Shown here piece by piece: positions 1,971 through 53,700 of a DNA stretch of 64,000 nucleotides. Positions within the stretch are counted from its first letter, which is position 1, and every line of letters starts with the position of its first letter. A program made the position numbers and the translations under genes. Source of the DNA: Savitreella phatthalungensis (lineage: Eukaryota); assembly GCA_051599415.1 (NCBI GenBank), contig AP039691.1, positions 186,001 to 250,000 of the forward strand, given 5' to 3'. The notes beneath the pieces are model-generated. The model was not told where the DNA came from. It did no database searches and saw only the letters and a program-made list of their open reading frames with translations.

Positions 1971-2898
1971 GGGCTGTTCGCTCGAAGGAGAACAGAGATA
2001 TAGAGAGCAAGAGACGTCCGAGCAGTCATACGCCTCATCGAATGAGATTGAAACACGAGAAAGAAGAATAGACAGCCGATCGGAACGGAATCGACTTGTA
2101 ACGCGCTGAGTCAGTTCTACAGATTATGCTTTCCGAAGGTGTGGGTATTCTTCCGATGGGCTTGACATCATGTTTAAGCTCCCCTGCCTCAACGTCTGTG
2201 GCCCACAATCGGTGTGACCAAAGTCGAGATTTCCTCTCTCAGGTGATCATGACGCCCAGTGCTCTCAATCAGCATCATACATGACGTGCTGCTAGACGTC
2301 CAATTTGCTCAGGTCGGGCACTTCATCCCCACCTCCTCCACATTCGCCTCCGCATCCGCATCCGCATCCCGCCGTCGTGGGAGCATTGTCTCGTCAGCAC
2401 AGCTAGCCGCTTGCCACTTTACCATTCGGTCTCTTCTTTGGAGAACGGGTCTAGCACTATACAAGCGACGTGAGGATCTCTCCTTAATTCCTGCTTCTCA
2501 TCAATCGCTTTACCCGGCCTCATTCGCGCCCGGCAATCACTACTTCCGGCTATTCGGAAGACCCCGGCAACACTTCCTTCGTCGTCGTTGAACCTCGACA
2601 TCGCGCATCACACGACGTCTGTACTCGACTGGTTCAACCTTGTTGGCCAATCAGCAGAACGTTCGTCATCAGACATCGCCTCATTTGCAGCTATTCTGTC
2701 GACTGACCCATATCAGCCTATTCTTCGTCACGACCCAGGGTTGTCGACGTCTCGCTGCCGATTACACCCGTCTTCGACTCGCTGACGGCTGTACAAATAC
2801 GACGATCGCAAGTCTGACTTGGAGACTCCTTGTACAGAGAAGACAGCGGCCTCATACGACACGACCTGATCCGGCTCCTTATCCAATCACCTCAAGCC

Positions 2899-4260
2899 AT
2901 GCTGATCAACTTGTGCGCACATCCACTGATCCCTGCTCTTTTTCTCATTTGCCTATCGAGCGCGCGCATCGTCCATGACATGCAGTCCACCTGGGCGCTC
3001 GAGCGTATCAGCCAAAGCAACAGACAGAGCGAGCGAATCGATGATAGCACGTTCAAAGACATCCCTATGGCGAAAACCGACAGCGATCTGTCGTATGAGT
3101 ATGCGTACGAGTCAAATGCGCAAGGCGAAGGCGTCACCGCATACGTGGTCTCTGAAGGAATTTACTGCAAACACGTGGCATTTGGAGGACGCGCGAAATG
3201 TCCGTGGCGCGCAGACTGGGTCGATGGGTGTGTCGGAGCGCTGTGTGGTAGCCAGGTGATGGACTTCCATATCGGCACTTTCGTCGCTGGCATCATCGGC
3301 GCCGAACATGTCGGTGTTGCTCGCAAAGCCACTCTCTTCTCCGTTCGAATAGAAGATGACATTGACGACAGCAGCACGCGCTCAGATCTGATCGAAGCTG
3401 TCGAGTACGTCATTGGACGTCAGAAGAAGTACAAGACGCGGGGACTCATAATGCTCACCGTCTCAGCGCACAAAAGGTATGAAGACATCGACCGTGTCAT
3501 CACCTCCGCATGGTTCCATGATCTCCCCATCGTAGTCAGCTCCGGCGGTTCTCAAAGAGACGCCTGCAGCCTCTCACCGCAGCATAAGTCAGAGGTCATC
3601 ACTGTCGCCGGCACCACAATCAAGGACCAATTCTTCTCAGCTATGGCTGGAGGCTCATGTGTCACGATCATGGCTCCCGGTGAGAACGTGCCATCGCTCT
3701 GGTGGCGTTCATACAATGCTGAAGAGCGTTCTGTCTCAATTGCTGTCGGTTCAGGAACAGCGCCAGCTCCTGCGTACGTTGCTGGCGTTTTAGCCGGCTG
3801 GCTCTCAAGTCCAGCCTTACAGAACATTTACGCCACTCAGCTACAGCACTTCCTCATTCGCAACGCTCTTCGCAATCGCATCACCGATATTCCGGCTGAC
3901 ACGCCTAACCTGTTCACTCAATCAATCCTCAATAACGATCTGCGAGACCTCCGTTCGCTTTCCGAGCGGCCCTCTTCCAGCTCCTCCACTCGGCCAGAGC
4001 CCCTGCCTCGCGAAGGCCTGCAGCGATCATCCTCCGGAAGATCTTCTTACCAACGACAGCGCTCTGGCAAAATGCCAATGATTCAGGAGTCTCCTGACAG
4101 AGACGATGAAGCGAGTAGCTCGAGACGTCGCGGTGGAAGCCGTCGCCGTGGTAGGAGTCGCACCGGCAGCAACTACGACGACGACGATGACGATTTCCGA
4201 AGTGACCGTGACGGAAGGCGTTATGCATACGCTGACCCGATGATCTCTGAGACACCGTAA
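2899..4260 (+). CDS. Secreted subtilase-like pseudo-protease copy 3 with Ser/Arg/Asp-rich C-terminal tail
   Basis: ATG 2899 (MLINLCAHPLIPALFLICLSSA, signal-like), TWALERIS, YVVSEG (D->S), HIGTFVAG, SSGG (N->G), SGTAPA (S->A; GCG at 3760-3762), low-complexity tail of about 110 aa. Confidence 0.85.
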   Translation: MLINLCAHPLIPALFLICLSSARIVHDMQSTWALERISQSNRQSERIDDSTFKDIPMAKTDSDLSYEYAYESNAQGEGVTAYVVSEGIYCKHVAFGGRAKCPWRADWVDGCVGALCGSQVMDFHIGTFVAGIIGAEHVGVARKATLFSVRIEDDIDDSSTRSDLIEAVEYVIGRQKKYKTRGLIMLTVSAHKRYEDIDRVITSAWFHDLPIVVSSGGSQRDACSLSPQHKSEVITVAGTTIKDQFFSAMAGGSCVTIMAPGENVPSLWWRSYNAEERSVSIAVGSGTAPAPAYVAGVLAGWLSSPALQNIYATQLQHFLIRNALRNRITDIPADTPNLFTQSILNNDLRDLRSLSERPSSSSSTRPEPLPREGLQRSSSGRSSYQRQRSGKMPMIQESPDRDDEASSSRRRGGSRRRGRSRTGSNYDDDDDDFRSDRDGRRYAYADPMISETP

Positions 4261-4583
4261 ATGCCTCTTTCTAGCACATGGTAGCTGAGCGGGTCCCGCC
4301 ACGCCTGCCTCGTTAGAGTCACCATGAACACATGATTCACATCATTCTCTGTTCATCCGTTCCGATCCACGCGTTCGTCACTTCCATCCGACACTGTCAC
4401 GCAATATCTTTAAAGCCGCGTTCAGGTGATCTCGTGACTGAAGGCCTGAGGGATGTGACACCTGTTCCGGGACTACATGTGGGGGTGTGAGTCTCTGAAT
4501 CATTCGCGCCGTGTCGGATCGTGTCATAAAGAGTTGTACAAGTTCGTCTGGACCCGAGCGTGACTTCCTGTACGAAAGAAGAT

Positions 4584-5738
4584 ATGCCGCGACTCGGTCT
4601 GTCAGCCTCGACGCTGATGTCGATCGCGATAAAGCTGTTGTTGTCCTTCCTATCGCTAGCCTATCTCACTGATGCAGCGATTTTGACACAGCCGCATACC
4701 TCCTGGGCGCTAGCTCGGATCTCCAGCAACAACGACAACCCACTCTCTCGCGTCCTGTCTGGCGGTCTCCAACGGCGTCTCAAGCCTGGTGAGACCCCGC
4801 TCTCGCGCGTGTTCCGGTACAAGTACGACGAGGATGCCTTAGGTCAGGGCGTCACCGTGTACGTGCTCGATCAAGGCGTATCGTGCAAGCACATCGACTT
4901 CGGTGGGAGAGCAAAATGCCCCCAAGCTGGCGATCTGACGGCTCACTGGATCTCCAGGCTGAATGCGTGGGCAAAACCAAAAGCACTGGACCATGGGACT
5001 GCCGTTGCTGGCGTAGTCGCCTCGAACACCTGGGGAGTGGCGAAACGCGCTAACATTGTGTCTGTGAAGGTAGTCAAAGACGATCGGAGTGTGAAGGCAT
5101 CGTTAGTTATTCAAGGACTCATGTATGCGGCCTCGAAGGAACGGAAGAAAGGTCCGGAGAGCGACTCCAGAGCTATCATCACTATGTCGATCCAGCTCCG
5201 GCGAGAAGCTGCTGTCCGGATGGCCATCGAAGCCGTCAGCTCACAACACCAGATCGTCGTCACCTCGGCCGCTGGTAACACCGGTCAGGATGCATGTGCG
5301 TTCGATCCTACGCGGATGGCAGATGTGGTCGTTTCTGGCGGCTCTGATATTGCAGATGAGATGTACGGGATGTCGAACTACGGGTCGTGTATCAGTGTGA
5401 TTGCTCCTGCAGTTGACTGTCTTTCAACAGCCTGGCGGGAGGACGATACGGCCTTCGATCTGGCAGCCGGATACACTGGAACTGCGATGGCGTCTGCATA
5501 CACTGCAGGCACAATCGCCAACATGCTCTCTCGTCCAGTGTTTGCGCACTACGGCCCAGACCTCCTCAAGAGCATCATCATCCGCAGAGCCCAGCGTGGC
5601 GCCATCAGGAACATCCCACACGGAACGCCCAACAGAGTCCTCATGTCCATCATCAAGCCGAGCACTTCGGAGACCGCCTCAGCACAATCAGCAAGCAGTC
5701 GTGCTAGCAGTAGCAATCAACAGAATCGAATTAGCTAG
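4584..5738 (+). CDS. Secreted subtilase-like protein copy 4, only catalytic Ser replaced (Ser->Ala)
   Basis: Start at ATG 4584 or 4617. Hydrophobic signal, SWALARISS, VYVLDQG (Asp kept), DHGTAVAG (His kept), AAGN (Asn kept), GTAMA (GCG at 5484-5486). Confidence 0.88.
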   Translation: MPRLGLSASTLMSIAIKLLLSFLSLAYLTDAAILTQPHTSWALARISSNNDNPLSRVLSGGLQRRLKPGETPLSRVFRYKYDEDALGQGVTVYVLDQGVSCKHIDFGGRAKCPQAGDLTAHWISRLNAWAKPKALDHGTAVAGVVASNTWGVAKRANIVSVKVVKDDRSVKASLVIQGLMYAASKERKKGPESDSRAIITMSIQLRREAAVRMAIEAVSSQHQIVVTSAAGNTGQDACAFDPTRMADVVVSGGSDIADEMYGMSNYGSCISVIAPAVDCLSTAWREDDTAFDLAAGYTGTAMASAYTAGTIANMLSRPVFAHYGPDLLKSIIIRRAQRGAIRNIPHGTPNRVLMSIIKPSTSETASAQSASSRASSSNQQNRIS

Positions 5739-6095
5739 TCACTTGACCGTACTAGGGATATCTATCATACTTGCACTTACCAAGCATCAAATGACCAGCT
5801 GCCTGTCCACTGAGTGGAAAGTTTATGGTGGCTTTGATCGTTGTAAAAGGTTGTCGGTGTCTTACGTGACGTGTCTAAGAACGTTGTCGTCTGCGTGCTT
5901 CCGCAGAAGGTATGACAGATGCGCTAGACGGCGCTTTGCGAGGAATGGCTTGGATCAATGGCGATCGTGCCAGCGACAAAGCCTGCTGCGAGATATGGTG
6001 CAGGGACTTCCGCCGCGAGTCTAGTGTCTTGCGGATCAATTGAGTCTCAAAGCAACATTCATACAAGTACACCTGGTGCTCATCAGGGCCTGCTC

Positions 6096-7130
6096 CTACG
6101 GTGGCAATGACCTGAGTACGCTGTTTGGAGTACCTGGAGGCACGCCGCTCAACACGTTATGGTCTGCGTGATTGATGAGCAGCTTCTTCATCATCTCTGG
6201 AGACTGGATCGACCATCGGTCGATCGACAACCAGGAAGCAAGTGTTCCTGCGACGTAGCCAGCTGCCAGGTAGGGTGCGGTGGCCGCAGCAGCACTATTG
6301 ACAATTTCCGGTGAATGACGGTCCCAGTAGACGGTATTGACTGCCACGCTCGGCGCAAAAAGAGAAATACAGTCTTCGGCCGTTATCCCCGTCGCTACTC
6401 GATCGAGAGAGTCCATACCGCCAGTGACGATGATACCGGCCAGCGACATCTCGTTGTGAGACTTGCATGGGTGGCTTGTCGATGTCTGAGGGGGTGCCGA
6501 GACGACTAAGTGGAAACCGTCGCCAATCATCCTGCCGATCGCGATGGTCAGTGCACCGGCAGTCTCAGGTAGATCAGGAATGACAATGACCGCGGCTAGC
6601 CGAGAAAGCATATCGGCTTCTTCTCTCATAGTGGCGAGTGCGTAAAGCAGTGTTGTCGCTTGTGTTCGCTCAAGGATGTCATTCACCTTGATACTGAAGA
6701 TGATACACTTTTTGCACACGCCGTAAACAGATCCCGCGAGCACCCCCGCCAGAGCCGTTGAGTCAGGGCCTGAAGGTTCGACAGCATGCAGTCGGTCGAT
6801 GTCACGCCAATCGGCGTCACTGGGGCCATCGACAAAGTCGAAGAGGCGAGAGCAAATCGCCCTGTCACCGAAATCCTTGTGGCGACACTGTACCCCGTCT
6901 CCAACCACAAACGCCGTCACTCCTACTCCCATCGCTGTGACATCGTACACGTACGTGAAGTTCGGCTTGTTAGCAAAGTCAATGCTATGACTGATTGGTC
7001 CTGTTGAGATACGGTGAAGAGCCCAACCCGCGTTGGCTTGCCGCGCGAGTTCAGTGGCTGCAAGGACAACCTCGCAGAACAGAATTGCCACAACCGCGCT
7101 CCTGAAGACCACGACAAGCATATGAAGCAT
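6096..7130 (-). CDS. Secreted subtilase-like pseudo-protease copy 5 (344 aa)
   Basis: Signal peptide, GWALHRIS, YVYD, FVVGDG (D->G), PDSTALAG (H->D), VSAPP, TAPYLAAGYVAG (no Ser), GTPNSVLRSLPP. Confidence 0.85.
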   Translation of the reverse strand: MLHMLVVVFRSAVVAILFCEVVLAATELARQANAGWALHRISTGPISHSIDFANKPNFTYVYDVTAMGVGVTAFVVGDGVQCRHKDFGDRAICSRLFDFVDGPSDADWRDIDRLHAVEPSGPDSTALAGVLAGSVYGVCKKCIIFSIKVNDILERTQATTLLYALATMREEADMLSRLAAVIVIPDLPETAGALTIAIGRMIGDGFHLVVSAPPQTSTSHPCKSHNEMSLAGIIVTGGMDSLDRVATGITAEDCISLFAPSVAVNTVYWDRHSPEIVNSAAAATAPYLAAGYVAGTLASWLSIDRWSIQSPEMMKKLLINHADHNVLSGVPPGTPNSVLRSLPP

Positions 7131-8015
7131 GCGCTGGCGACATGATTGTCTTATATGCCAGCTACATCATGAGGAGGGACCATCAAGCGCAGCTTTGACA
7201 GCGCTTGCATGGCAGCTAACCGCGGTCGTTGCAGCTCAGAGCGGCAAACGTCTTATCATTTGGGATCAATTTAGCTCCCCAAACCAAGATGGGGTCTTTG
7301 CACAGGAGTCATGGCATTGCGCGGCGGCAAAGATAAGTGACGTATCCATGACTCATTATCCTGAGCCGGACTATTCCGGCCGCTGCGCTAAGAAGCTTAG
7401 TTTGGTTGTGTCGACGATGTCGAGTTTCTCACTGTGAATGCTCGCGGGATCAGGATAGTTTCATGCTCTGGCAGCGTCACATCTGATTGAACAGGATGCG
7501 ATAAGGGGTGTATAAGGGATGTACACCATCTCGTATGGCCTTCCGAACAGGAGAGTAAGGGGTTTTGCCCGGAGAGAATCAGATTAGCTAGTACGTGACA
7601 AGAAGAGGTATGAAGTATGATAGATTGTGACTTGTCTTGTTTTCCGAGACTCCCGAGTCGAGCTCTTCGATCATTGGGAACTTCAGTCGTTCCTTACCGT
7701 CAAGCGAGATGAACCTAATCTATTACCTTCCTTTCGCGCTCGACGACTCAAACTGTATGAATCGAGCTCTCCAGCCGTGGTCTTCCACATCGGCCGAAGC
7801 TTGACTCTCCTGTTCAGCTAACGCGACTATCTGAGACGCAAGTCACCCTTCCTCTGTCAATCATGTGTGAACCGATCGATTTGCGAACAGTAACTACGCT
7901 ATGGGCGCTGGTCTACGTTTCCATACCGGGACCGTGAACGGCTTCCGAAAGATCTGCGCATGTCAACAACGTTTACCCTCTACGATTTGAGCGCTGATGA
8001 TGCTCGTGCCATTGC

Positions 8016-9107
8016 TCATGGAGGCAGAGATCTGAGAAGGTAGTTTGGTGTGCCGCTCGGCAGAGCTCCTACGACATTTGCGTCAGCGTGTCTCTGGATG
8101 AGGGCCTTCATCTGGTCTGGTTTCGTCAATCTGTACTTTTCGATGGAGAGCCAGGTAGCGAGAGTGCCTGCGACGAGACCTGCTGCGAGGTGCGGTGCTG
8201 TTCCTCGTACCGCTAGATCTTTCTCTTGCGGACGGTCTTTCGCCCACCAGACCGTGTAGACGTCTGCTCCTGGTGCGAAGACAGAGACACAGGATCCCGT
8301 GTGGGACCACGGCAGTACTGTGTCGTTGGCGCGAGTAAAGCTTGTGCCGATTACGCCTTCTGCACCCATACCCAGGAACGAGTTGCACTGGTCCCTTTCT
8401 CCTGGAGACGCACCAGATACCACGACGTGGATTCCCTTCCGCACGAGCGCTTCTAGGGCACGAGGAAGTGCGGCTGTTCGTGACCACACTGCCGGATATA
8501 CAACTACTCCAGGCTGCCAGTAAACGAGATTCTGTGTTCCGGCGATCATCTCCATCGCATCCAGCACATCCGAGATTCGCGTTATCTCCGAAGATCCCGT
8601 CACCTTGACACTGACGATTGTGCACTGCTTACACACACCGAACGTCGCTCCTCCGGCAGTTCCCGCAATTTGCGTAGCCTTGCCTTCTGACGGTCGTACG
8701 TCGTTCCAGTCATCTTCGTCTCCGTCGTTGCCGTCGTCATCGTCGAGTTCGGCGGAGGTTGGTCGTGGACGACGGTGAGTTGATCTGCCGCGACTCGGTG
8801 AGGATGAGTCTGAATCGCTCGAGGTCGTCAGCAGGGTTCTCGCAAAGTCGTAGTTGCTGTTGCACAGCGCTCGACCTCCGAAGTCAACGTGCTCGCACTG
8901 AACGCCATCGCCCATGACGTAGAGACGTACGCCTTTGCCTAGCACATCGTCGTCATACGTGTAGTCAAAGTCATGACGCTCGATCGCGTTCGCGTCCTTC
9001 CCTAACGCACCCGAGGAAATCCGGTGAAGAGCCCAGCCGGCATGAGGCTGTTGCTGTATGGCGCCCGAGACACCGCTAGTGATAATCGCAAAGAGACTCC
9101 ACAACAT
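8016..9107 (-). CDS. Secreted subtilase-like pseudo-protease copy 6 with internal Ser/Arg + acidic insertion
   Basis: ATG 9107 (MLWSLFAIITSGVSG), GWALHRISS, YTYD, YVMGDG (D->G), GKATQIAG (H->K), GTAPHLAAGLVAG (no Ser). Close paralog of copy 5. Confidence 0.85.
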   Translation of the reverse strand: MLWSLFAIITSGVSGAIQQQPHAGWALHRISSGALGKDANAIERHDFDYTYDDDVLGKGVRLYVMGDGVQCEHVDFGGRALCNSNYDFARTLLTTSSDSDSSSPSRGRSTHRRPRPTSAELDDDDGNDGDEDDWNDVRPSEGKATQIAGTAGGATFGVCKQCTIVSVKVTGSSEITRISDVLDAMEMIAGTQNLVYWQPGVVVYPAVWSRTAALPRALEALVRKGIHVVVSGASPGERDQCNSFLGMGAEGVIGTSFTRANDTVLPWSHTGSCVSVFAPGADVYTVWWAKDRPQEKDLAVRGTAPHLAAGLVAGTLATWLSIEKYRLTKPDQMKALIQRHADANVVGALPSGTPNYLLRSLPP

Positions 9108-9614
9108 AGGTAGCGATGCGTGTGTCGCCAAGCTGGTGAGTCGCCTCTACTTCTGTATTGCTGTCCTCGATCAAGGAGATGGCTGCGGTCGCGTCAAGAG
9201 CACGAGAGCATATGACTAGCTGTCCATGGTCGCGTGCACTCTACACGCAGCCAGCCCGCGCATGCAGGCTTGTATCTGCTGACGGTTGACCCAGGCAACG
9301 GCACTGCACTGTGACAGCCAACTGAGATCGAGGGCTCTACCACATTCTCGGCCACAGCTGGCCTCGACCGCATAGGTCATGACGTGAGGCTACCACGAGG
9401 GTGCACCAGGTGATGCTGGATAAATCATCGACTCGCCGACGAGAGACCCTGCCATGCGTCGTCTGAGTCTCGTGAGCGTTGGGGTCTTCGGAACGAGTTT
9501 CCGAGGATCTCGGACGACCTCGGCAATGGTGTTAGCGGAAGCGGCGATGACGAACCTCGATTATATCATCTTATTGTGCCTCGGATGCGTCTACCTTCCC
9601 CTTCTTCGTGCACA

Positions 9615-10685
9615 ATGATCTTGCTGAGGGGGTGGGTCTTGGGATCGCTGCCACTCTGGGTTGTTGGGGAGATGGTCCGCCAACCAGACACCAGTTGGGC
9701 TTTGGAACGTATCTCTGCTGCGAGAGATCCCGGGACGGGGTTGCAGAGGCCATTGACCGATCGTGATCCGCGACTGCCCGTATTTAACTACCTGTACGAC
9801 GCCGGGGTCACCGGTAAGGGCACCATCACGTACCTGGTCGACAGCGGCGTGATGTGCAACCACATGCAATTCGAAGGGAGAACGGTGTGTTACCGGCGAG
9901 CTGACTTCACGAAGCGGCTTCCCGCGGGGATGCGCTTTGGAGCGCCCTCAGACCAGTTGGGCCATGGCACAGCTGTTGCCGGGGTGATTGGTGGGAAGCA
10001 GTGGGGTGTGTCAAAGGGGACGACGATCGTATCGGTCAAGGTGATAGGCAAGAAGCTCCGGTTTCGTGCAAGCCGAGTGATTGCTGCAATGAACTGGATC
10101 GTCAAGCATGTGCAGTCTACCGGGGAAGCAAACAGCGTGGTGGCGCTGACATTCGTCACCCCGCGAAATCCAGCGATCGAGTACGCGGTCGATACTCTGA
10201 TCCAGTCGAAGCTTGTCGTAGTGGCAGCAGCAGGCAGTCACCAGCGCGATATCTGCGACATGACGCCCGTCAATAACCCTGCCGTGATCACTGTCGCCGG
10301 CACGACGACAGACGATAAATGGTGGGGGAACAACAACTTTGGCAAGTGTATCGACATGCTGGCGCCATCGCAGCGCGTATATACTGCATACATCGGGAGT
10401 CCGAGTACTTCTGGCTTGTTATCGAACGGACCACTGGCTGCGGGTCTGGTTGCCGGCACGGCAGCTGTGTGGCTATCATCCCCAAAGATGCAGCGGAAGA
10501 TGCTGCTGCCATCTGACACGATGAAGTACTGGATGATTCAGGCGGCATTGAAAGACATCATTAATGGCGTGCCCTTAGATACGCGCAACAACTTCCTCAA
10601 CACGCTTGTACCGAGAGATTTCTCGAGTCCATCATCCTCAGGCAGGAGCAGCAGTCGCCAGGTAGCTGACAGCTCGGGTGGCTAG
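9615..10685 (+). CDS. Secreted subtilase-like pseudo-protease copy 7
   Basis: Start at ATG 9615 (or 9585). SWALERIS, YLYD, YLVDSG (Asp kept), GHGTAVAG (His kept), AAGS (N->S), SNGPLAAGLVAG (S->P; CCA at 10431-10433). Confidence 0.85.
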   Translation: MILLRGWVLGSLPLWVVGEMVRQPDTSWALERISAARDPGTGLQRPLTDRDPRLPVFNYLYDAGVTGKGTITYLVDSGVMCNHMQFEGRTVCYRRADFTKRLPAGMRFGAPSDQLGHGTAVAGVIGGKQWGVSKGTTIVSVKVIGKKLRFRASRVIAAMNWIVKHVQSTGEANSVVALTFVTPRNPAIEYAVDTLIQSKLVVVAAAGSHQRDICDMTPVNNPAVITVAGTTTDDKWWGNNNFGKCIDMLAPSQRVYTAYIGSPSTSGLLSNGPLAAGLVAGTAAVWLSSPKMQRKMLLPSDTMKYWMIQAALKDIINGVPLDTRNNFLNTLVPRDFSSPSSSGRSSSRQVADSSGG

Positions 10686-25754: not shown

Positions 25755-27491
25755 TCACAAAAGCCTCCTGCGCTTGCGCACGTACACTGTGTCTTGGCCG
25801 AACGTCCGCTTGGCAATGACTGGATAGTGCTCCGTCTCGGCCTGTAGATCGACTTGAATACCTGCACCGACTGTCTTCGGAGAGACTGTGACGATGAGGA
25901 GATCGAGGTCTTGTGGATGTGCTAGGAGGTCGTTGATGATGGCTGCACCGCCTTCGACCATCAGACTAACGTCCTTGCGTGTCTTTTGGAGGTGATCTCG
26001 GACTGTTCGCCAGGCGAATCTTGATTCCGCTCCTGACACTCCAACCTGCTCGACTGTCGCGACAGACTCTCCAGCGACATCCACACCCTCCCCGACGAGA
26101 TGCACAGGCTTCTTACCACTGCCGGCCACGTGCAATTGCCACAGCTTGCTCGACTCCCTGATGGCGAGCTTGCCCCGGGGGTCGAGGACGAACGGCTCTG
26201 GCTGTTGATGCAGGGGCATCGGCGTAGTACCATCGGCTTCACGTGCATTCAACCCTGGATCGTCAGACTGGAAAGTGCCTGAGCCGACGGCAATCTGTCG
26301 GTGCACGCGACGAAGGTGGTGTGTCATCCGCATGCTCTCGCTACCCGATATCCGCATGGGTTTACGATCCGGTCCAGCGATGAATCCGTCTGACGTGCGC
26401 GCGTACGTCAACGTGATGCCGCGTGGTCTCAGTAGGCGCACAAACTCGCGTGCCATCGTCTCAGGGTCTGCAAGTGATTCAGACGGAGGTTTGACGCCTT
26501 CGAGACGCGTTGCCAATGTGTCTTCCCAATCTCCAGTCTCGAAGGGCTTCCAGGGCAAAGCGTCCTTCAGCTCGTGATCTGCTACCCGTGTTCGTGTGAG
26601 AGCAACCATGTGAGCTGCTGATCCACAAGCCTTGCCGAGATCATGAATGAGTGAGCGCACATACGTCCCGCCCGATACGGTCATTCGTAGCTTGACAGCC
26701 ACGGTCTGACTAGATGCATCTGCTGCTGTAACACCATGGCCATTCTCGAGCTTGACTCGTTTGGTGGGCTGAGAATCTGCCTCATCAGCCTGGATCTCGT
26801 CCTCTGGAGCGCCTTTGTTGACACCCAGACTCTCTGCTATCAGCCGACTACTGAGCTTCGTGTCCTCTTCCGCCTCGCTTTCTGGCAGCCTCCACGTGTG
26901 GTCAGTCGTGTAGTCGAGCATCTCGAGAACGCTGACAGTTGCGTTGCGAGGCTTGATCGGTTCTGGCAGGGGTTTGTTGTTCCGGGCGTACCAGTACAGT
27001 GGCTGACCCTGCATCTTGATGGCCGAGTAGATTGGCGGTGTTTGAGTGATATTACCTCGGAGACCTTCGAGCTTGGACTCGATCAGATCTCTCGTCAGAT
27101 GCGAGGTCGAGGCACGCTCGAGGATCTTGCCTTCGGCGTCGTACGTGTCGGTAGAACACCCGAACAGGGCGACTGCCTCGTACTCCTTCGTGCAATCGAG
27201 GAAAGCCTGGAGTTTCCTGGTGCCGTTCCCGATGCCGACAACAAGCACACCGTCTGCAAGCGGGTCTAACGTGCCTCCATGACCCATCTTGACCTGTGCA
27301 GAACCTCCTCCACCTCGCTTTCCACCGCGACCTCGTCTGGCACCCGCCCCACGACTCTGATGGTCCAGCGCATCTGCAGCCGAGAGTGAGTCGGCAAACA
27401 TCGGCGACATGCTAAATACGAGCTTCAGGTAGTCGAGACATGCGGCAGAAGAGGAGCCAGAAGGCTTATTGATGGCAAAAACGCCGCTCAT
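25755..27491 (-). CDS. PUS4: Fusion: tRNA pseudouridine-55 synthase (Pus4/TruB) + Rib7-like (RibD_C) riboflavin-pathway reductase
   Basis: N-terminal part: FAINKPSG, KMGHGGTLDPLADGVLVVGIG, TDTYDAEG, QTPPIYSAIKMQG, VSGGTYVRSLIHDLG. C-terminal part (about 26430-25755): ITLTYARTSDG, ISGSES..MTHHLR, VGSGT...DDPGLNAR, SLMVEGGA. No stop codon between the two. Confidence 0.85.
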   Translation of the reverse strand: MSGVFAINKPSGSSSAACLDYLKLVFSMSPMFADSLSAADALDHQSRGAGARRGRGGKRGGGGSAQVKMGHGGTLDPLADGVLVVGIGNGTRKLQAFLDCTKEYEAVALFGCSTDTYDAEGKILERASTSHLTRDLIESKLEGLRGNITQTPPIYSAIKMQGQPLYWYARNNKPLPEPIKPRNATVSVLEMLDYTTDHTWRLPESEAEEDTKLSSRLIAESLGVNKGAPEDEIQADEADSQPTKRVKLENGHGVTAADASSQTVAVKLRMTVSGGTYVRSLIHDLGKACGSAAHMVALTRTRVADHELKDALPWKPFETGDWEDTLATRLEGVKPPSESLADPETMAREFVRLLRPRGITLTYARTSDGFIAGPDRKPMRISGSESMRMTHHLRRVHRQIAVGSGTFQSDDPGLNAREADGTTPMPLHQQPEPFVLDPRGKLAIRESSKLWQLHVAGSGKKPVHLVGEGVDVAGESVATVEQVGVSGAESRFAWRTVRDHLQKTRKDVSLMVEGGAAIINDLLAHPQDLDLLIVTVSPKTVGAGIQVDLQAETEHYPVIAKRTFGQDTVYVRKRRRLL

Positions 27492-28099: not shown

Positions 28100-29677
28100 A
28101 TGAATTGGCATGACAGCTTGCACGGCAATCTCAAAGCCAACATTTCTGGGAAACACGCTCAGGCGAATGACGTGCAGAGGCCGCGTCCGCGAATGACTCG
28201 TTCGGAAAGCGTGCTTCCCGTGAAAGTGCGCGCACTTACACCTGGGCTTCCATCTACCAGTGCTTCTGCTACACCTGGTACCAACACAAGAGAGAGCTCA
28301 GGTGACGAAACACCACCGTTGTCCATCACACCGCGCGTCAAGAGCAGTCTTCAGGCCGGAAAATCACAAAGATCAGCTTCCACGCGCGTAGGCCCTGAGT
28401 CGTCACCGAGACTCGTCAAGTCCTTGTCAGCACGGCAGGTGGCCACGACGCATAGCTCTGCAGCATCACAAGCACCGAATAGACCCGATAAGCTGACACG
28501 AAGTCGATCGTCTGCTGCTGTCATCGTCCAGACCGATCCACAGGCCTTGCCGACGGGCAACACCATGCCGCTAGTACCGCGAGCTCAGCAGAACAAGGGC
28601 TCGCACGCCACACCTGTGCTGCGTGCACGTGCAAGCAGCAGCAATCTGGTATCGTCTGGCGTGGGCAGTGCCGGCAGCAGGTCACGAACACGCACAGTCA
28701 CCTCATCGCAAGGCTCTGACGGCAGCACGTCAGTGGGTGAACCTCGGCCGAGCTCACGTCTGACCCAGCGACTTTCCACAGCGTTGAGCCCAAATACATC
28801 CGACATCGAGCATGCCTCATCCGCCGGTCCTCGACCAGGTCCCCGAATGAAGACGATGAGGCGACTGCCATCAGAATCGACAATATCGAATGGTGTCTCG
28901 CCCGCGTCTCCTGCCAAGGAATTTCCCGGTGCTGTGATGGCGGTATCACCGATCGCTTCTCCGGTTAAGGAATTCCCGTCCTCTGGAGTTCACACCGGCA
29001 TTGACTCGCCCACTCGTAAGCGCCATCCCCTCCAGCCGCCGCAGCTCTCGCGCCAGCCGAGCCGCGTTGAGCTCACATCGCCACGACTCGGTTCAGAGAC
29101 ATCGGATTCCTCATCCACGGTATTCAGCATCCCTCACCCGCAGACGAACTCCCTAAGCCGTGAGCCTCACCAGCCTGAAGACGAGGCAGTTGTCCACACG
29201 ACCGCACAGAATGCTCGCAAGCTCGCAGACCTCGAGATCCGGAATGCGAGTCTGATGGCGGTGAACGCGTCGCTGGAACGGCGGACGCGACGGTGGGCGA
29301 AAGAGATTGCTGACCTGCGACGCTGTGGTCCGTCAAGTGGTGGCCAACCGACATCGACAGCAATACTGCCAGACGATCTGGTCAATGAAGAGAATCCGGA
29401 CGACCACCACCCATCCATACCGCTCGATGCAGCCATCGACAGAGCTCTCGTCCTAGCCGACCACCTCGTCAGGGCAGCCGAGGAAGGACTTGCTTGGCGA
29501 CCTAAGATCCACGAGGATGCGATCGCTCGAGCAACAGAGGGCGTTCGACGTGTCGTGTCACGTGATCGGCGCATGAATGAGGATGATGGAGATTCCACTG
29601 TCGATCACTCCCATATCACAAACCCGGAAGATATCACATTCGATGACGACCCACCAGCAAACCACCTTGCACCCTAA
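28100..29677 (+). CDS. Ser/Pro/Arg-rich disordered protein with C-terminal coiled coil (unknown function)
   Basis: 525-aa ORF. RKLADLEIRNASLMAVNASLERR resembles a coiled-coil motif seen in uncharacterised fungal proteins. Confidence 0.7.
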   Translation: MNWHDSLHGNLKANISGKHAQANDVQRPRPRMTRSESVLPVKVRALTPGLPSTSASATPGTNTRESSGDETPPLSITPRVKSSLQAGKSQRSASTRVGPESSPRLVKSLSARQVATTHSSAASQAPNRPDKLTRSRSSAAVIVQTDPQALPTGNTMPLVPRAQQNKGSHATPVLRARASSSNLVSSGVGSAGSRSRTRTVTSSQGSDGSTSVGEPRPSSRLTQRLSTALSPNTSDIEHASSAGPRPGPRMKTMRRLPSESTISNGVSPASPAKEFPGAVMAVSPIASPVKEFPSSGVHTGIDSPTRKRHPLQPPQLSRQPSRVELTSPRLGSETSDSSSTVFSIPHPQTNSLSREPHQPEDEAVVHTTAQNARKLADLEIRNASLMAVNASLERRTRRWAKEIADLRRCGPSSGGQPTSTAILPDDLVNEENPDDHHPSIPLDAAIDRALVLADHLVRAAEEGLAWRPKIHEDAIARATEGVRRVVSRDRRMNEDDGDSTVDHSHITNPEDITFDDDPPANHLAP

Positions 29678-29886
29678 CTATAGCTTCACCCACAATCACC
29701 CACCACCGAAGCAAGATGACCAGATGTATACGTAGTCTGCAATGCATGAGTAACGACGATTGTTTGGTTAATGAATGTGTGTGCATCAATCAGTCACCTT
29801 GCTACAATAATAGGGAACTCTGGAACATTGTCTGTGTAGATGTGGTAGACTTGTCCGGTCTTTGTATGGATGAACGAACGCTAAGC

Positions 29887-30432
29887 CTACTGTGGCTTGA
29901 GGATACCCTTGCCCTCTAGCTCTTTCTGGTCAGGTCTGCCTGCGATCTTGGCGTCGAGCGTGTCTTCTAGCTGTGACTTCTTGAGCTGGTCCTGCTTTGC
30001 CTGGAGTGCTGGAGCGACGTTGTTGCCAGCCTGCTTGAGGATGTTCTTCTGCTGGAGTTCTTCAGGTGAAGGTCTGTGAGCAAGCGCATCGTCAAGCTTC
30101 TTCTCCTCCTTCGGAGACAGCGGACCGATCGGCTTGTACGCCTTGCCGTCAGCGTCAACGGCGGCAGGCTCTCCGGTGATCGCAGTGTTGATCTTCTGGC
30201 CAGCGTCCTTCACAGCAGCAGAGGCACTGTCAAGGTACGGCTTGGTTGCCTGGTGAGCCTGCTCGAGGTACGGCTTTGTAGCAGCGGTTGCTTGGTCCAC
30301 GTATGGCTTTGTCGCAGCGGCGGCCTGATCGACGTACGGCTTTGTGGCAGCAGCAGCCTGGTCGACGTAAGGTTGGACGGTCTTCTGGACGTCAGCAGCT
30401 GCCTTTGAAAGTGTCTCGCGAATGGAGTCCAT
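29887..30432 (-). CDS. RPEL-repeat protein with N-terminal 11-mer amphipathic repeats
   Basis: Two RPEL motifs (LAHRPSPEELQQKNILK; IAGRPDQKELEGKGILK) and five KPYVDQAAAAT-type repeats. Confidence 0.8.
   Translation of the reverse strand: MDSIRETLSKAAADVQKTVQPYVDQAAAATKPYVDQAAAATKPYVDQATAATKPYLEQAHQATKPYLDSASAAVKDAGQKINTAITGEPAAVDADGKAYKPIGPLSPKEEKKLDDALAHRPSPEELQQKNILKQAGNNVAPALQAKQDQLKKSQLEDTLDAKIAGRPDQKELEGKGILKPQ
30211..30375 (-). repeat. Five degenerate 33-bp coding tandem repeats
   Basis: QPYVDQAAAAT/KPYVDQAAAAT/KPYVDQATAAT/KPYLEQAHQAT/KPYLDSASAAV. Confidence 0.85.
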
Positions 30433-31447
30433 TGTGTTTGGGGTCTAGCGTTGCTCGGGCTGTGTAAAGGATTATGCTAGAGAGGTTGCGGAAGGTTTCC
30501 AGTTGCCCCGATGACTCTTTGTTTGTAATGAGATGAGTGTGAGAGTGAGTCAGGGAGTGAGTGAGTACAGGAGTGAAAGGACGATGAATGAGCTGTGTGG
30601 AGGTATAGGTGACTGCCGGTCAGTTGCCGTTGGAGGATGTTCCCGTGCTTCACTGTCGATCGCCGAGACTGTGTGTGCGTGATCGAGTGTGTATATGTGG
30701 GTGTGTGCATGTATGTATGTGTGGATATGTGTGGATATGTGATCTGGCGGATTTTAGAGCTGCACGGGGTCAAACATCTGAAATGACTTCATACCCACCC
30801 GCCTGACCACTGACAGATATGCACGAGCAGGAGCAGCTTAAATCAATCTATACTGCTGCAGGCGAATGCATAGCTGCTGGCATCGAAGGATGCAGACACA
30901 CGTGACCCTTTGGATCACCTTCAACACAAGGGGCACATATATCCATATGTATTTGCACAAATGGATATGCATGATTGATGGATGGTTGTTCAATATGCTT
31001 ATGTGCCTCTAAGGTCCAAGTGAGAGTCCAAGCTCTAAAAACTGGAAAGTGTGAATTGGATGGAAAGTCAGCTCTGATACACAACTGCAATTGATAAAGG
31101 CCTGGGGTAAACAATTAGATTATAGCTAGCTGCCTTGATTAATGAGCTCCAAATTGAGGTCTAAACACGTGATTATCAAACCCAATACTCAATATTGCAG
31201 GCGTCCATTCACCCAGTCATTCAAATGCATCCATATGCACAAGGACGTAGATGCACAACACCCACAGGTACACTGATCACAGGCACAGACAAATACACAG
31301 CCCCCTACCCATTCACCACCTGAAGCCATCAGCATCTGCACACATCTCGCTCTGGTCCTCAGCTGAACGCCTGATCTTCCAGCATTCTGTTTCTGGTCGT
31401 CTTCAACTTCAAAACCTGATTCATTTTTCCCTCTAGACACATACTCG

Positions 31448-42292: not shown

Positions 42293-45016
42293 TCATACCT
42301 GGTAAGTCTGTGCCATGACTTGCCTTGCTGATGGCTCGAGGTTGGCCATGAGCCTTTCCCAGTCTGGGTAGACTGGTTTGAATCCTTGGAGGATTTTGGC
42401 AAACATGTCGTGCAGTTCTGGGGAGGGCTCGCCGTACTTGGCCACTGCCAAGACAAAGTCTGGGAAGAAGGCGGCAAGGGCGTTTGGATTGGCTGCGATG
42501 GTCTGGCAGAGCCCGCGGAATGCAGAATCCTTCTCCCGATTAGGCACAGAGTCCTGTAGCGCATGGCAGAGCTGTCGACCTGCAACATCGAGTCGGCGCG
42601 CCGTCCGCTCTGTCGATGTCAGACCCATCCGACCGAACGTGATCGCAGCGTTCTCCAATAGCGCGCTCTGCACCTTCGGTGTGCGCATCACGGCGACAAG
42701 ACGATCTAGCAGGACTTCTGCCCACGGCTCGATCCCTGCGCCGGCCTGAAGACAGATCTCGCCGGCAGACCAGGTAGCGTTGTTGGCCACAGAGACGGAA
42801 TCCGTCTTAGTGTCAATCTGCTGAACGAGCTCGCTCATGACCTGCGTCAGATACGGTTCGACGTCTTGCCAGCAGTTCATGACAAGATCGCCGAGCAGGG
42901 CGTACGCAGATTGGCGGACTTCTCCAATCGGGTCAGCCATGCAAAGCTGGAGCAGCTGCATGAGCGGTGGCTGCGCTTGCGCAATCAGTGGTCGAATTGA
43001 TGCACCAAGACCTTGCACCATGCCGGACAACAGGTCCACAGCGGTGATCAGGAAGTCCTTCTCTGGCGCGTCTGCCGAAGTGCCGTTGGCGAAAGCATCC
43101 ACTTGAGACAGGTTATGGCGAAGAATAGCGATGCTTCGACCGAAGACGGGTTCTGCGAAGGGCGCGAATCCGCCGCCCAACGCAACCGTCACGCTCGACA
43201 AGCATTCTAGCAGAGGGAAGAGATCCCGGTCATCGTCTGGAATACTTGACCACCTCTGCAACAACGGGGGCATCAGCACATCGATGTACTCTTGCTTGCT
43301 CAGCTCTGGACCGACCGCATCTGCTAGTGTCTGGACAGCATCGTACAAGATAAGCAGATTCTTCTGTTGATACTTATCGAATGCAGCGACGATGTGACGG
43401 AGGATGTGTGGCAGGTACGGCACGAGTAGCTGCTGAGCGCAGTCCTCTAGGTTGGCGAATGCAGAGCAGCCTGCCTCCTGTACCCTCTTATTGTTGTCGA
43501 GCATCGTGCCGAGAAGACCTTCGAGAAGAGGTGGGAAGTGCTCAGTGTTGCAGACCCAGGTTCCGTAACGACCAAGAGTCCAGCAGGTGATCTGTCGGAT
43601 CAGCGGCTTCTGATCCTTGAGAAAGTTGAGCAGCGGTGGGAAGATGTCTGGCAAATAGGTCGACATGCCGTCGAGACATCCTTCTGCTATTGCTCCCAGG
43701 GCCAGGACGCCGGCCTCACGCTCCTTCCAGTCGGCAGATTGCAGAGTAGCCTGGAGATGTGGGAGACACTGCTCCAAGAGCGTCGTGCCGTACACGGTAG
43801 AGAGGACGTCTAGTGCGGCTGCGGAACATTTACGCAGGTTCCATTCGGCATATAGGTCGTCCTCCTCTTCATCGTCATCATAGTCCTCGTCATCATCTTC
43901 GTCATCTGCAGTCGCGTCATCGTAATGCAGGCCGTTGATTTTCCGTGAGGCTTCGTTCGAGGTCTGTTCAGTCACGACATGCTGCTTGGCCTTTGCATGC
44001 TGCGGCCGAATGTCTTCAGCCTTGTCAGCAACGTGAGCATCATCCTCGTCGGCGCCAAGCGCGAGCAGATCCATCTCGCTATAAACCATGCCCTTGAGAA
44101 GCATCGGTACGATCTTTGACAAGTAAGGCTCGAGAGAGCCCTGAAGGTCTGGTTGCTCTGCAATCGCCAGCCAAAATTCACAAGCCTCAAGAGCGACTTG
44201 CTCGTCCTCATCCTGGGTCGAGTAGAGCATATATTCGACAATCGAACCGAGATTCGGAGCAATCTTGTCTGGCCGGACGTCGAGCAGCATGACGAGTGCC
44301 TGGCAGACGTTCTTTCGAACATTTGTCGAGCTGTCTGTAGCTAGCGCGAACAGTCTCGTGAGGAATGCGTCGATGTGGGCAAAGAGAGATTGGCTCTTCA
44401 TGAGAATGAACTGGTTGATGCAGAAGAGAGCCTCTGATCTGAGCTTCTCCTTCGGGCTCTCGGTGAGTGCAAGGAATTTGGGGATCATGAAGTTGAGCGG
44501 CCGTGTGCCATCAAAGTCGTTGTCGAGCTCTTTTGCTGAGTCCTCGCAGATCTTGCTAAGAGCACCGATGGCGCCGTCGACGAGCCTGTCGTCTGCATCG
44601 TCGAGCAGCTGCATGAGATACGGCAGTGCATCCGGCCATGATCTGACGCCACCGCGGTAGATAATCGATGTGATGATGTTACCTGCGATTGAGCGAATCA
44701 GATGTTCATCGTCTCGCAAACCCTGAAAGGAAGCTTCCTGGACATATGCGAGGGAGTCTGGCGAGATGGTTGGATATTCAAACCTGACGTTGTTCTTAAG
44801 CAGGAGTCCGGCAGCTGATCGAATGCTCGTTTCCGTCGCGCCTGGCTGTAGGAAGATGTAGGCTAGATAGTTATTGCAGTCTGGGACAGATGATTTGGCG
44901 ATATCGATCTGTTCTAATGCGGATGTGCGTGCTTGAGCGTCTGCAGACATGGACGCCTGGAGGACTGATCTGAATTGTCCAAGGACATCCTGTTGTGGTT
45001 GCCAGGTGGATGTCAT
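42293..45016 (-). CDS. KAP104: Transportin-1 / importin beta-2
   Basis: AAGLLLKNN, KICEDSA, VALEACEFWLA, acidic H8 loop followed by WNLRKCSAAALD, NKRVQEAGCSAFA, LLENAAITFGR. Confidence 0.95.
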   Translation of the reverse strand: MTSTWQPQQDVLGQFRSVLQASMSADAQARTSALEQIDIAKSSVPDCNNYLAYIFLQPGATETSIRSAAGLLLKNNVRFEYPTISPDSLAYVQEASFQGLRDDEHLIRSIAGNIITSIIYRGGVRSWPDALPYLMQLLDDADDRLVDGAIGALSKICEDSAKELDNDFDGTRPLNFMIPKFLALTESPKEKLRSEALFCINQFILMKSQSLFAHIDAFLTRLFALATDSSTNVRKNVCQALVMLLDVRPDKIAPNLGSIVEYMLYSTQDEDEQVALEACEFWLAIAEQPDLQGSLEPYLSKIVPMLLKGMVYSEMDLLALGADEDDAHVADKAEDIRPQHAKAKQHVVTEQTSNEASRKINGLHYDDATADDEDDDEDYDDDEEEDDLYAEWNLRKCSAAALDVLSTVYGTTLLEQCLPHLQATLQSADWKEREAGVLALGAIAEGCLDGMSTYLPDIFPPLLNFLKDQKPLIRQITCWTLGRYGTWVCNTEHFPPLLEGLLGTMLDNNKRVQEAGCSAFANLEDCAQQLLVPYLPHILRHIVAAFDKYQQKNLLILYDAVQTLADAVGPELSKQEYIDVLMPPLLQRWSSIPDDDRDLFPLLECLSSVTVALGGGFAPFAEPVFGRSIAILRHNLSQVDAFANGTSADAPEKDFLITAVDLLSGMVQGLGASIRPLIAQAQPPLMQLLQLCMADPIGEVRQSAYALLGDLVMNCWQDVEPYLTQVMSELVQQIDTKTDSVSVANNATWSAGEICLQAGAGIEPWAEVLLDRLVAVMRTPKVQSALLENAAITFGRMGLTSTERTARRLDVAGRQLCHALQDSVPNREKDSAFRGLCQTIAANPNALAAFFPDFVLAVAKYGEPSPELHDMFAKILQGFKPVYPDWERLMANLEPSARQVMAQTYQV

Positions 45017-50729: not shown

Positions 50730-53700
50730 ATGTATTCTCCGTCGCGCCTGGTGGCGGTCGCCGCAACAGCGCTGATAGCCGTTCATGCAATCCTCTATCT
50801 CATTTGCGTCCTCACAGGCATTCGCGTCGGCAGATTAGGCTTTCTGTCTCTTCGCCATGTCGAGATCAAGTCTCAGCCTGGCGTCGTGGTGCGAATTGGT
50901 ACAGTTGGCTTTCGATTGCACCGCCCAACGATATCTCAACCATCATGGGTCACTCTCGTCGTGTCCAAGACGGAAGTCTCGGTAGCGCTGGATGAGCTTC
51001 AGCAACGCAACCGTCCATCAAAAGCCGGAAGGCCTGAGACGTCGTACGACACGGCGCCATATGGTCAAAAGATCGCGAATCTCAAGGCAAAAATGAAGAA
51101 GCTGGTCGGACATATGTCGCACCTGCCGTTGCATCTTGTGGACATCTCGATCTCAAATACGGTGCTTGTGCTGCGAAATGTTGCAAAGGTCGAGTTAGGC
51201 ACCTTGAATCTCCGGCTGTCTCAACGTCGCGCTGGTGCCACCGAGACATATGACACAGGTAGCAAGATCATCGACAATTCACGAGGCATTGAGCTCGTGG
51301 CTGCATTCTTGAAGCTATTTATAAGTGTCGATGGCGGAGAGCGACATGAGATCACAGATCTTACGCTCGTCAACCTATGGGCGGCATATGGTGGAGAGTT
51401 CGGCGTACACGACGTTGGCGTATCTGTCAAGATGAGCAAAGTCGACTTGCCTCTCGACTCTGTCCTAGAAGTGCTGCCCAGACTCAAGCAGACACGATTA
51501 GAGTTGCAGTCAGCAGATGATGCGGAACCCAAACATGCAGCACGAGACAGCAGCGAAGAAGCCGCAATTTTACGGAGAGAGATGCTAATCCTCCTCATGG
51601 ATCTGGTGCGTGATGTCCAACTTCACCTTGGCTTCCTTAAGGTAGCCTATGAGACCACAGCCGTCGCTCCCGGTGGCAAAGCGGCGAGGTTGACATTCCG
51701 TTCAAAGGATATCGTGCTCGATCTCAACCGTTTAGCTAAGGATTCTCCAGACTTCAGGATGCTTTTCGACGGCGGACTCCGCCATGATGCCCATCAAGCC
51801 ATCATCACTGCGATATCGTCTACAATACACCTGCAGAGCGATGCTGTCGAGCAGCAGATCGTTGGTGTCCCGATGTTGACTGTCGCATCCAAGTTCAGCA
51901 CAGCAGCTTGGTTGACCCGTGACAGGAGTATCGACCTCGATCCGAATGCGCATTTAGTCCAGTTGGACACAGTCATCACCTCGCCGGCTGTCGATGTCTA
52001 CGTCACTCAGCTACCGGTGCTGTTCGGATTCCTTCGTCTCCGTAAGATGTACACCTCGTCTGCAAACAGTCTAGACGACGATGAGCTCAAGGAATCTCGG
52101 AGAAATCGGCTGCGAAGATCTATTCCCAAGCTGAATGTCTCTTTCGGAATTCACGAGCCGAGCGTACGCATCATTCTGCCAATAGCAGAACCTGGTGCTT
52201 CCTCAGCCATGATTGTCGGCCGCCAGGCTTCAATTTACCTCGACGTCTGCGGTTATTTCCCCAATCCATCGAATTACGCTGTAACAGCGACTTTACGACT
52301 CGCCGCAGGTGGTTTGTACTTCCAGTCGCCGACTGACCAACGCCACGATATCGTTTATTCAGACGGTGCGATCATCAAATTTGACATGTCAACCGACCCC
52401 ATCAAGAAGGTCAACGTCAGCTTCGTGTCTGAAAGCAGTAAAGTACGCATTACTCAGCAGGAGGTCATCTCATGCTGCAGAGCGATTTCCGCTGCACTTG
52501 TCGCTGCTAGATTCAAGCCAGATAAATTGTCAGAACCGTTATCAACTCCGCCACGCAATCAGACTCCAAAAGCGCTACTACCCGGCTGGCTCAACTCTGT
52601 TTCTCTTGTATGTCGACAGACAACGATGGAAGTCTGCGGCAAGGATAAGCAGGTCGCCGAAGATGCGCGCGGTATTCGGTTCGAGCTTGGTTCGATCCAC
52701 CTGCAGCTGAATCGAGAGAATACATGGCTGGTCTTGAACCGCATCTCGGACCTCCGTCTGTATCCGATTGAATCCGATGATTCAGTCAATACGAAGCACC
52801 ATATAGCACATCTGCCGCACTGGCAGCTTGAAGCAAGACTCGTCGAGCAGCATCCTGCTCAGCTTGCATTGACACAAATCGTGGCAAAAATGGATGAGTT
52901 TCACCTCGGCTTCTCCCTGTTCTGGCTCTACACCGGTCTACAAGCGGCACAGGTCGTCAGATCTTGCTTTCTTCCTCACAATAAGAAGCAGGAGGAGGCA
53001 GACGTGACAGAGCAGACTCCCAAGTCAAAAGATCCTCGCTTCGTGCTCTCAACGTGCCGGGTTGACCTCAGCTGCCGCTTGATTCGTCTCCAGGCGTTCC
53101 TACCGCAGGAACAGCACCTCATGCTGGATTTCGACCACCTTCACATCTACAAACACGCTCAAGAGCCTGTTGCAAAGATCAATTTTGTGCGATTATACAC
53201 CCGATCGCCTGTGAAGCGTGGCTCTTGGGATCGTCTGCTCAGCATCCGCGATGCTCATATCACACGCGAAGGGGCCACATCGAAAGCGGGTGGTCAGACG
53301 CACCATGTCCGATCGATCAACATCCGCACAGACGGCCTCAGAATTCGTCTGCCACACAAGTTCGTCTTCTATGAGACGCTCGAGGCGCTTCTGAACACAA
53401 TCAAAGCAACTACACAAGTTGTTCACCGCTGGAAGACAAATCAGAACAGCTATGTGATCGCCCAAGAGCCAAAAAAGCCAAAGAAGCTACCACGTATTCG
53501 TGTGCGCTCGAGGATCGTCCTAGTCGGTGCTGAAGATGACCCTTTCGAGGCTCGGCTTGGCCTCATTTACCGCACTGGTATGCAGGAACAGAAGATGCGA
53601 GAAGCGCGCGACCTGGCATTCGAGAATCGTCTTGCAGAACTCAAATTACAGAAGCACCGCGCCCACGAAGATTTCTCAAATGAATTGCAAGCCATGCGCG

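Follow-up and report, generated by a model that had tools for sequence, protein, structure and literature searches.

The PUS4-RIB7 reading frame and its surroundings

The window analysed here, a stretch of 64,000 nt from the early-branching fungus Savitreella phatthalungensis, carries on its minus strand (25755..27491, read from 27491 to 25755) one stop-free frame that translates into 578 aa (62.6 kDa). A Pfam search identified in it TruB_N (aa 67-197, E 1e-40), TruB_C_2 (aa 279-317) and RibD_C (aa 359-543, E 1e-17), confirming a genuine in-frame fusion in the DNA of PUS4 (TruB family) and RIB7, in which, as the preliminary description had claimed, the TruB domain runs through a short linker into RibD_C. 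All the features of the fusion given below lie on the same strand.

The Pus4 half (aa 1-331, 26499..27491), a predicted tRNA pseudouridine-55 synthase, was recognised by Pfam, by matches to TruB and TRUB1 structures in the PDB and by a fold match to 1k8w. The GHGGTLDP-bearing TruB of the preliminary description was recovered, as the GHGGTLD motif at aa 70-76 (27264..27284) aligned to TruB structures and included D76, which we take to be the catalytic Asp. D76 is the Asp of the HxGxLD signature of the family, and the K-x-Y motif reads K102-E-Y104. This half has no PUA domain and was placed in the tree with fungal Pus4, not with Cbf5. A disordered insertion (pLDDT <50) contains a basic PTKRVK motif (26751..26768) that may be NLS-like, and a similar motif (pattern P-x-K-[KR]-x-[KR]) is present in Taphrina-like Pus4.

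The Rib7 reductase half (aa 339-578, 25755..26477), matched by Pfam and by both sequence and fold to PDB 4ha7, opens with the fungal helix alpha1. In the alignment to 4ha7, to whose chain an offset of 5 was applied for mapping Saccharomyces cerevisiae Rib7 (ScRib7) residues, G403-x-G405-T406...D410 (26262..26285) corresponds to G76-x-G78, T79 and D83, and E513-G514-G515 (25947..25955) to E180-G181-G182. ScRib7 is described in PMC3631187 as an NADPH-dependent, homodimeric reductase of DAROPP for which T79, D83, E180 and G182 are necessary, T35 being the fungal specificity residue; these five residues are T406, D410, E513, G515 and T362 in the fusion. Of the 12 differences listed for the Rib7 half in a relative sequenced in another study (run X3), 11 are synonymous, compared with an expected fraction of 0.26 (P=3e-6), the contigs being of low depth and further differences near their ends lying outside the listing. 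The window Rib7 itself sits on a long branch, and after TLTYA it reads RTS in place of QSL, three residues that are conserved in the other 10 rows of the alignment.

The linker spans about aa 332-338 (26478..26498), with pLDDT <50 at aa 333-337. An AlphaFold model built from a 30-row alignment showed both halves folded (mean pLDDT 80, pTM 0.55) and the linker at low confidence, as would be expected if the two domains have no fixed position relative to each other. Scanning the linker for splicing revealed no intron-like pattern, no donor-plus-branch combination and no branch site, and an intron inside it was ruled out since splice signals are absent. With neither a stop nor an intron between the halves, Pus4 is translatable only with Rib7 attached. 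The in-frame ATG at 26456 (26454..26456, M346) had been proposed as the ancestral RIB7 start, a proposal that we had to abandon: M346 lies within a helix (aa 343-354), the first of Rib7, Rib7-like sequence continues upstream of it (SLADPE vs SLTPAE), and none of 11 Taphrinales relatives has Met at this position, where Q, D, A or R is found instead. Its -3A/+4G context is common to 21 of the 274 internal in-frame ATGs in 25 ORFs of the window. M346 is thus not the ancestral start of RIB7, and could be a secondary start at most.

Contigs from two sequencing runs (X1 and X2) cross the linker with identical letters, no gaps and no joints, both runs coming from the same source sample and hence not being biologically independent. 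The stop or indel in the linker that would have undone the fusion is absent from these contigs. Run X4 gave no cover over the locus, and run X3 only short low-depth pieces. Contig depths in X2 are 88, 148 and 2641, whereas X1 is flat at 51. A 700-nt X2 contig at depth 2641 (29768-30467) fits a 181-aa RPEL-repeat ORF plus short flanks, starting 35 nt ahead of this neighbour of the fusion and ending 119 nt past it, which suggests that X2 is RNA-like, though it was labelled 'DNA?' by guess, and that the RPEL gene is highly expressed. The X2 contig over the fusion leaves the linker unchanged but crosses the divergent intergenic stretch too, so a single transcript cannot be read from it.

Elsewhere in the window, a 525-aa low-complexity ORF (28100-29677) without a Pfam match is oriented divergently to the fusion, with 608 nt between them. 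A cluster of ORFs at 888-12721 includes four that encode divergent subtilases (Peptidase_S8), at 2899, 4584, 8016 and 9585; ORFs of similar size without a Pfam match lie at 888 and at 6096, and one of 541 aa at 11096. Uninterrupted ORFs encode a Hobbit/FMP27 protein of 2713 aa (50730-58871) and an importin-beta-like protein of 907 aa (42293-45016); such very long uninterrupted frames suggest that introns are few in this genome, though some are present, for example in locus L021.

Gene copies and the riboflavin pathway

In a profile search of the genome (12.7 Mb, 27 contigs), TruB_N matched twice, in the fusion and in a separate gene that appears, from its sequence alone, to be Cbf5-like, and RibD_C matched once, in the fusion. 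The fusion is thus the only PUS4 of the genome, and the suggested check for another RIB7 turned up none. The RIB1, RIB2, RIB3, RIB4 and RIB5 families are all present, so that the Rib7 half is the sole reductase of a complete riboflavin pathway. A weaker second GTP cyclohydrolase II-like gene occurs besides RIB1 (L007, G000:C9:372303-372653), and is possibly Urg1-like. Given the single copies, the complete pathway, the catalytic residues kept and the synonymous differences in X3, both halves of the fusion look functional.

The single Rib2-type deaminase is on another contig than the RluA-type synthases and has no pseudouridine synthase fused to it. Its ORF, identified by Pfam, follows a hexokinase ORF on the minus strand (L102:3762-5686, that is G000:C22:13761-15685), with its first ATG 59 nt behind the hexokinase stop. 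The gap contains a branch site GCTGAC and an acceptor TGTAG, a combination of motifs that occurs in the window at 0.29 per kb per strand, and the Pfam deaminase match opens at the acceptor codon, four residues before the first ATG of Rib2. Three GT[AG] donors are found upstream, and only the one in the hexokinase tail, which would define a 71-nt intron, is in frame from hexokinase; for an alternative intron of 46 nt, the 30 open codons upstream contain no ATG. These donor frames and the lack of an ATG in the alternative leave two possibilities for Rib2: splicing onto hexokinase, or a start at an ATG that lies 11 codons within the hexokinase end. An intron may thus connect Rib2 with hexokinase. 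Neither of the two ORFs in unspliced form, hexokinase or Rib2, has an exact entry in the protein collection, while the fusion is present, a result that a different choice of start could explain and to which we give no weight.

PUS4 and RIB7 in the relatives

In the tree the Pus4 half is sister to Taphrina plus Protomyces (90/93), on a long branch, and the Rib7 half falls within the Taphrina/Protomyces clade (99/95). RibD_C was found in two of the best 120 of 507 Pus4 matches (317-1012 aa): the query and Taphrina deformans CCG81049.1 (UniRef100_R4X9Y2), whose 626 aa contain TruB_N, TruB_C_2 and RibD_C in the same order and align end to end with the fusion, at 42% identity over 633 columns. The search for this architecture proposed in the preliminary description thus yielded a fused gene model in a second species, and by the same token the architecture was already in databases, unremarked. 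The T. deformans linker is about 14 aa longer and would probably be joined across an intron, in contrast to the intronless join of the window. The gene models of T. deformans are described as automated MAKER predictions with ESTs (PMC3648899), and CCG81049.1 may be a merge of neighbouring genes by annotation, as in the DnaJ+Pus4 entry of Pneumocystis wakefieldiae (P0126). This entry and the two others of unusual architecture (P0033 and P0007), a methyltransferase+aminotransferase+Rib7 protein of Rhizophlyctis and a pirin+Rib7 protein, are probably merged gene models.

Further searches for the fusion gave no additional case. The Rib7-half search (64 matches, 317-1012 aa) returned no other TruB+RibD_C protein, a weak blank because the T. 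deformans fusion was missed too; no other full-length match was found among the best 150 of 21,841 in a 50%-representative search, and none of eight long Pus4 matches scanned has RibD_C. ESM Atlas gave no usable match for the fusion, and only bacterial deaminases for the Rib2 query. Scans for loci of the Taphrina/Protomyces type returned five loci in metagenomes by pattern, all nearest to Pezizales proteins, none in viruses, and 80 in GTDB, all with bacterial titles and none above 39% identity.

The other Taphrinales Pus4 clusters (n=11, nine Taphrina-like and two Protomyces-like) end soon after the domain. For seven of these 11, a Rib7 lies on a contig of identical length (11 matches, 3,301 to 690,853 nt), contig sharing being read here from equal lengths, which give neither order nor strand; of the four unmatched clusters three are on contigs <3.6 kb and one on a contig of 16.7 kb. 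In Protomyces lactucae-debilis the two genes have consecutive accessions (ORY86301/ORY86302) and are annotated as separate. PUS4 and RIB7 are on different contigs in Pneumocystis oryctolagi, and RIB7 is near PUS4 in none of five Pezizales-like loci (2-6 kb each). Taken together, PUS4 and RIB7 appear to be old neighbours in Taphrinales. Their join could be ancestral, with a later separation in Protomyces, or could have occurred twice; the tree fits both.

The Pus4 tails of the Taphrina-like relatives suggest how the two genes may be connected there. In all nine, the last domain residues are followed two to four residues later by G-K or G-N, at the place where CCG81049.1 crosses over and in tails that are otherwise unlike; these nine are kin, and the pattern was spotted before it was counted. 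The same dipeptides are found in 12 of 69 other fungal Pus4 and in neither of the two from Protomyces. This count leaves out 37 of 106 others, whose tail was too short or in which no Trp aligned, and one of the 120 for lack of the anchor motif. G-K is seen in the Pus4 tails of Neolecta and of agarics as well. At the DNA level, G|GTAAG or G|GTAAY could specify G-K/G-N and at the same time provide a phase-1 donor, and an intron in the S. phatthalungensis genome begins G|GTAACG. Where two close relatives read G, CCG81049.1 reads E, the expected product of a phase-1 splice. In CCG81049.1 the only Met within the 40 residues before TLTY is at -5, and the gene-called starts of eight Taphrina-like Rib7 lie 5, 12, 13, 23, 25, 36, 42 and 42 residues before TLTY, a scatter that speaks against a common start. 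Taphrina introns are reported to average about 48-78 nt (PMC4007546, PMC3648899). On this evidence we find it reasonably probable that a short phase-1 intron connects PUS4 and RIB7 of Taphrina, in which case retention would yield free Pus4 and splicing the fusion. The hexokinase-Rib2 pair would have the same architecture.

A proposed bifunctional protein and its counterparts in known systems

We consider it likely that the locus is one gene for one bifunctional protein of 63 kDa, with independent domains, that originated by fusion of neighbours. One mRNA would give one polypeptide, whose N-terminal half would act as Pus4, converting U55 of tRNA to pseudouridine, and whose C-terminal half would act as Rib7, which carries out step 2 of riboflavin synthesis in fungi, an NADPH-dependent reduction. 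The domains would fold and work separately across the flexible linker, and Rib7 would probably still dimerise, as expected from PMC3631187, rendering Pus4 dimeric. The fusion would have arisen from the old adjacency of the two genes in Taphrinales, with Rib7 as a passenger on the promoter and start codon of its neighbour, and the pseudouridine synthase is probably an incidental partner. Rib2, the other riboflavin enzyme considered here, lies behind hexokinase, a partner unrelated to tRNA, and this favours such a passenger fusion over a link specific to pseudouridine. A broader scheme, which we put forward as tentative and rather doubtful, is that two successive middle steps of riboflavin synthesis in Taphrinales are encoded by alternative last exons of unrelated housekeeping genes (Rib7 of Pus4, Rib2 of hexokinase), a stop-bearing phase-1 intron being the switch, splicing setting the flux and the Pus4-Rib7 of S. 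phatthalungensis being fixed in the fused state. If true, intron retention would yield the free host enzyme and splicing the host-riboflavin fusion, and vitamin B2 flux would be splice-controlled.

The locus might instead make the fusion together with a separate Rib7 of 233 aa, from an internal transcription start and the ATG at 26456, which would supply most of the reductase and leave the Rib7 tail on Pus4 largely as a by-product of a lost stop. M346 has A at -3 and G at +4, and a start there would keep the RibD_C core whole; helix alpha1 is described as absent from the archaeal enzyme (PMC3631187), and Protomyces has two annotated genes; yet the frequency of this context among internal ATGs, the lack of conservation of M346, which cuts helix alpha1, and the similarity of the Rib7 N-terminus extending upstream of it render this reading unlikely. 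That the assembly is wrong here, or that one strain lost a stop only very recently, we regard as very improbable indeed: the linker is spanned by the source-sample runs only and the contig of the relative starts at 26487, short of the Pus4 domain, but the two runs are identical letter for letter, the join recurs in the T. deformans model, and a free RIB7 would have neither space nor a start codon apart from M346.

It could also be proposed that tRNA pseudouridylation and riboflavin synthesis have been tied repeatedly because one regulates or localises the other, in line with the precedent of yeast Pus8/Rib2, the interplay of whose two activities is presented as open in PMC5699540, and with an adjacency that persists across Taphrinales and a fusion in two lineages. 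Such a coupling seems distinctly improbable to us, as the model has no fixed domain arrangement (pTM 0.55), the Rib2 of moulds is, as described in PMC8256712, a deaminase only, Rib2 of S. phatthalungensis abuts hexokinase on a contig other than those of the RluA-type synthases, and neither the P. oryctolagi genes, on different contigs, nor the Pezizales-like loci, over their 2-6 kb, keep PUS4 and RIB7 together. The preliminary description had seen here a second, independent link between a pseudouridine synthase and riboflavin synthesis. Its independence stands, the synthase being TruB instead of RluA and the riboflavin enzyme a reductase instead of a deaminase; the specificity of the link is weakened by the old neighbourhood and by the position of Rib2 behind hexokinase.

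With the fusion, a second and independent tRNA pseudouridine synthase carries a riboflavin enzyme, with other families on both sides, and it apparently results from the merger of long-time neighbour genes. Taphrinales seem to show the stages of such a merger, from separate neighbours (Protomyces annotation) through a probable intron-joined state (Taphrina) to the intronless one (S. phatthalungensis), so that they may offer a tractable model for the fusion of neighbouring eukaryotic genes, and a natural test of the functional meaning of Pus-Rib fusions, an open question for yeast Pus8/Rib2. If hexokinase and Rib2 are spliced together, the middle enzymes of the pathway ride on housekeeping genes, and we met no description of this. 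Nor did the literature searched, in which few subscription papers are included, contain a description of a Pus4-Rib7 or TruB+RibD_C fusion, in agreement with the preliminary description, which had not recognised it as described; the domain pair might be listed in supplements to the publications on Taphrina genomes. A Rib2-methyltransferase fusion of Schizosaccharomyces pombe, considered as a parallel, was not confirmed, the literature match giving the gene only as a Pus6 BLAST match.

In many bacteria truB is adjacent to ribF. The closest known counterpart is Saccharomyces Pus8/Rib2, described as an RluA-type Psi32 synthase and a DRAP deaminase in one polypeptide (PMC5699540, PMC8256712). Like it, the fusion has an N-terminal tRNA pseudouridine synthase and a C-terminal riboflavin-pathway enzyme; unlike it, the fusion is of the TruB/Psi55 and not the RluA/Psi32 type, contains TruB instead of PF00849 and RibD_C instead of a CDA-family deaminase, thus serving step 2 and not step 3, and belongs to Taphrinales and not to budding yeasts, S. 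phatthalungensis having no Pus-Rib2 fusion. With the stand-alone fungal Pus4 and Rib7 (ScRib7, PDB 4HA7) it shares folds, catalytic residues and the fungal-type Thr35 (T362), whereas these are separate proteins in the other fungi examined and consecutive separate genes in the Protomyces annotation. RibD_C as a C-terminal fusion module is also known from bacterial RibD/RibG (deaminase plus reductase) and from RibA-like plus RibD_C proteins, but there the partner acts within the same pathway, whereas the Pus4 of the fusion lies outside it.
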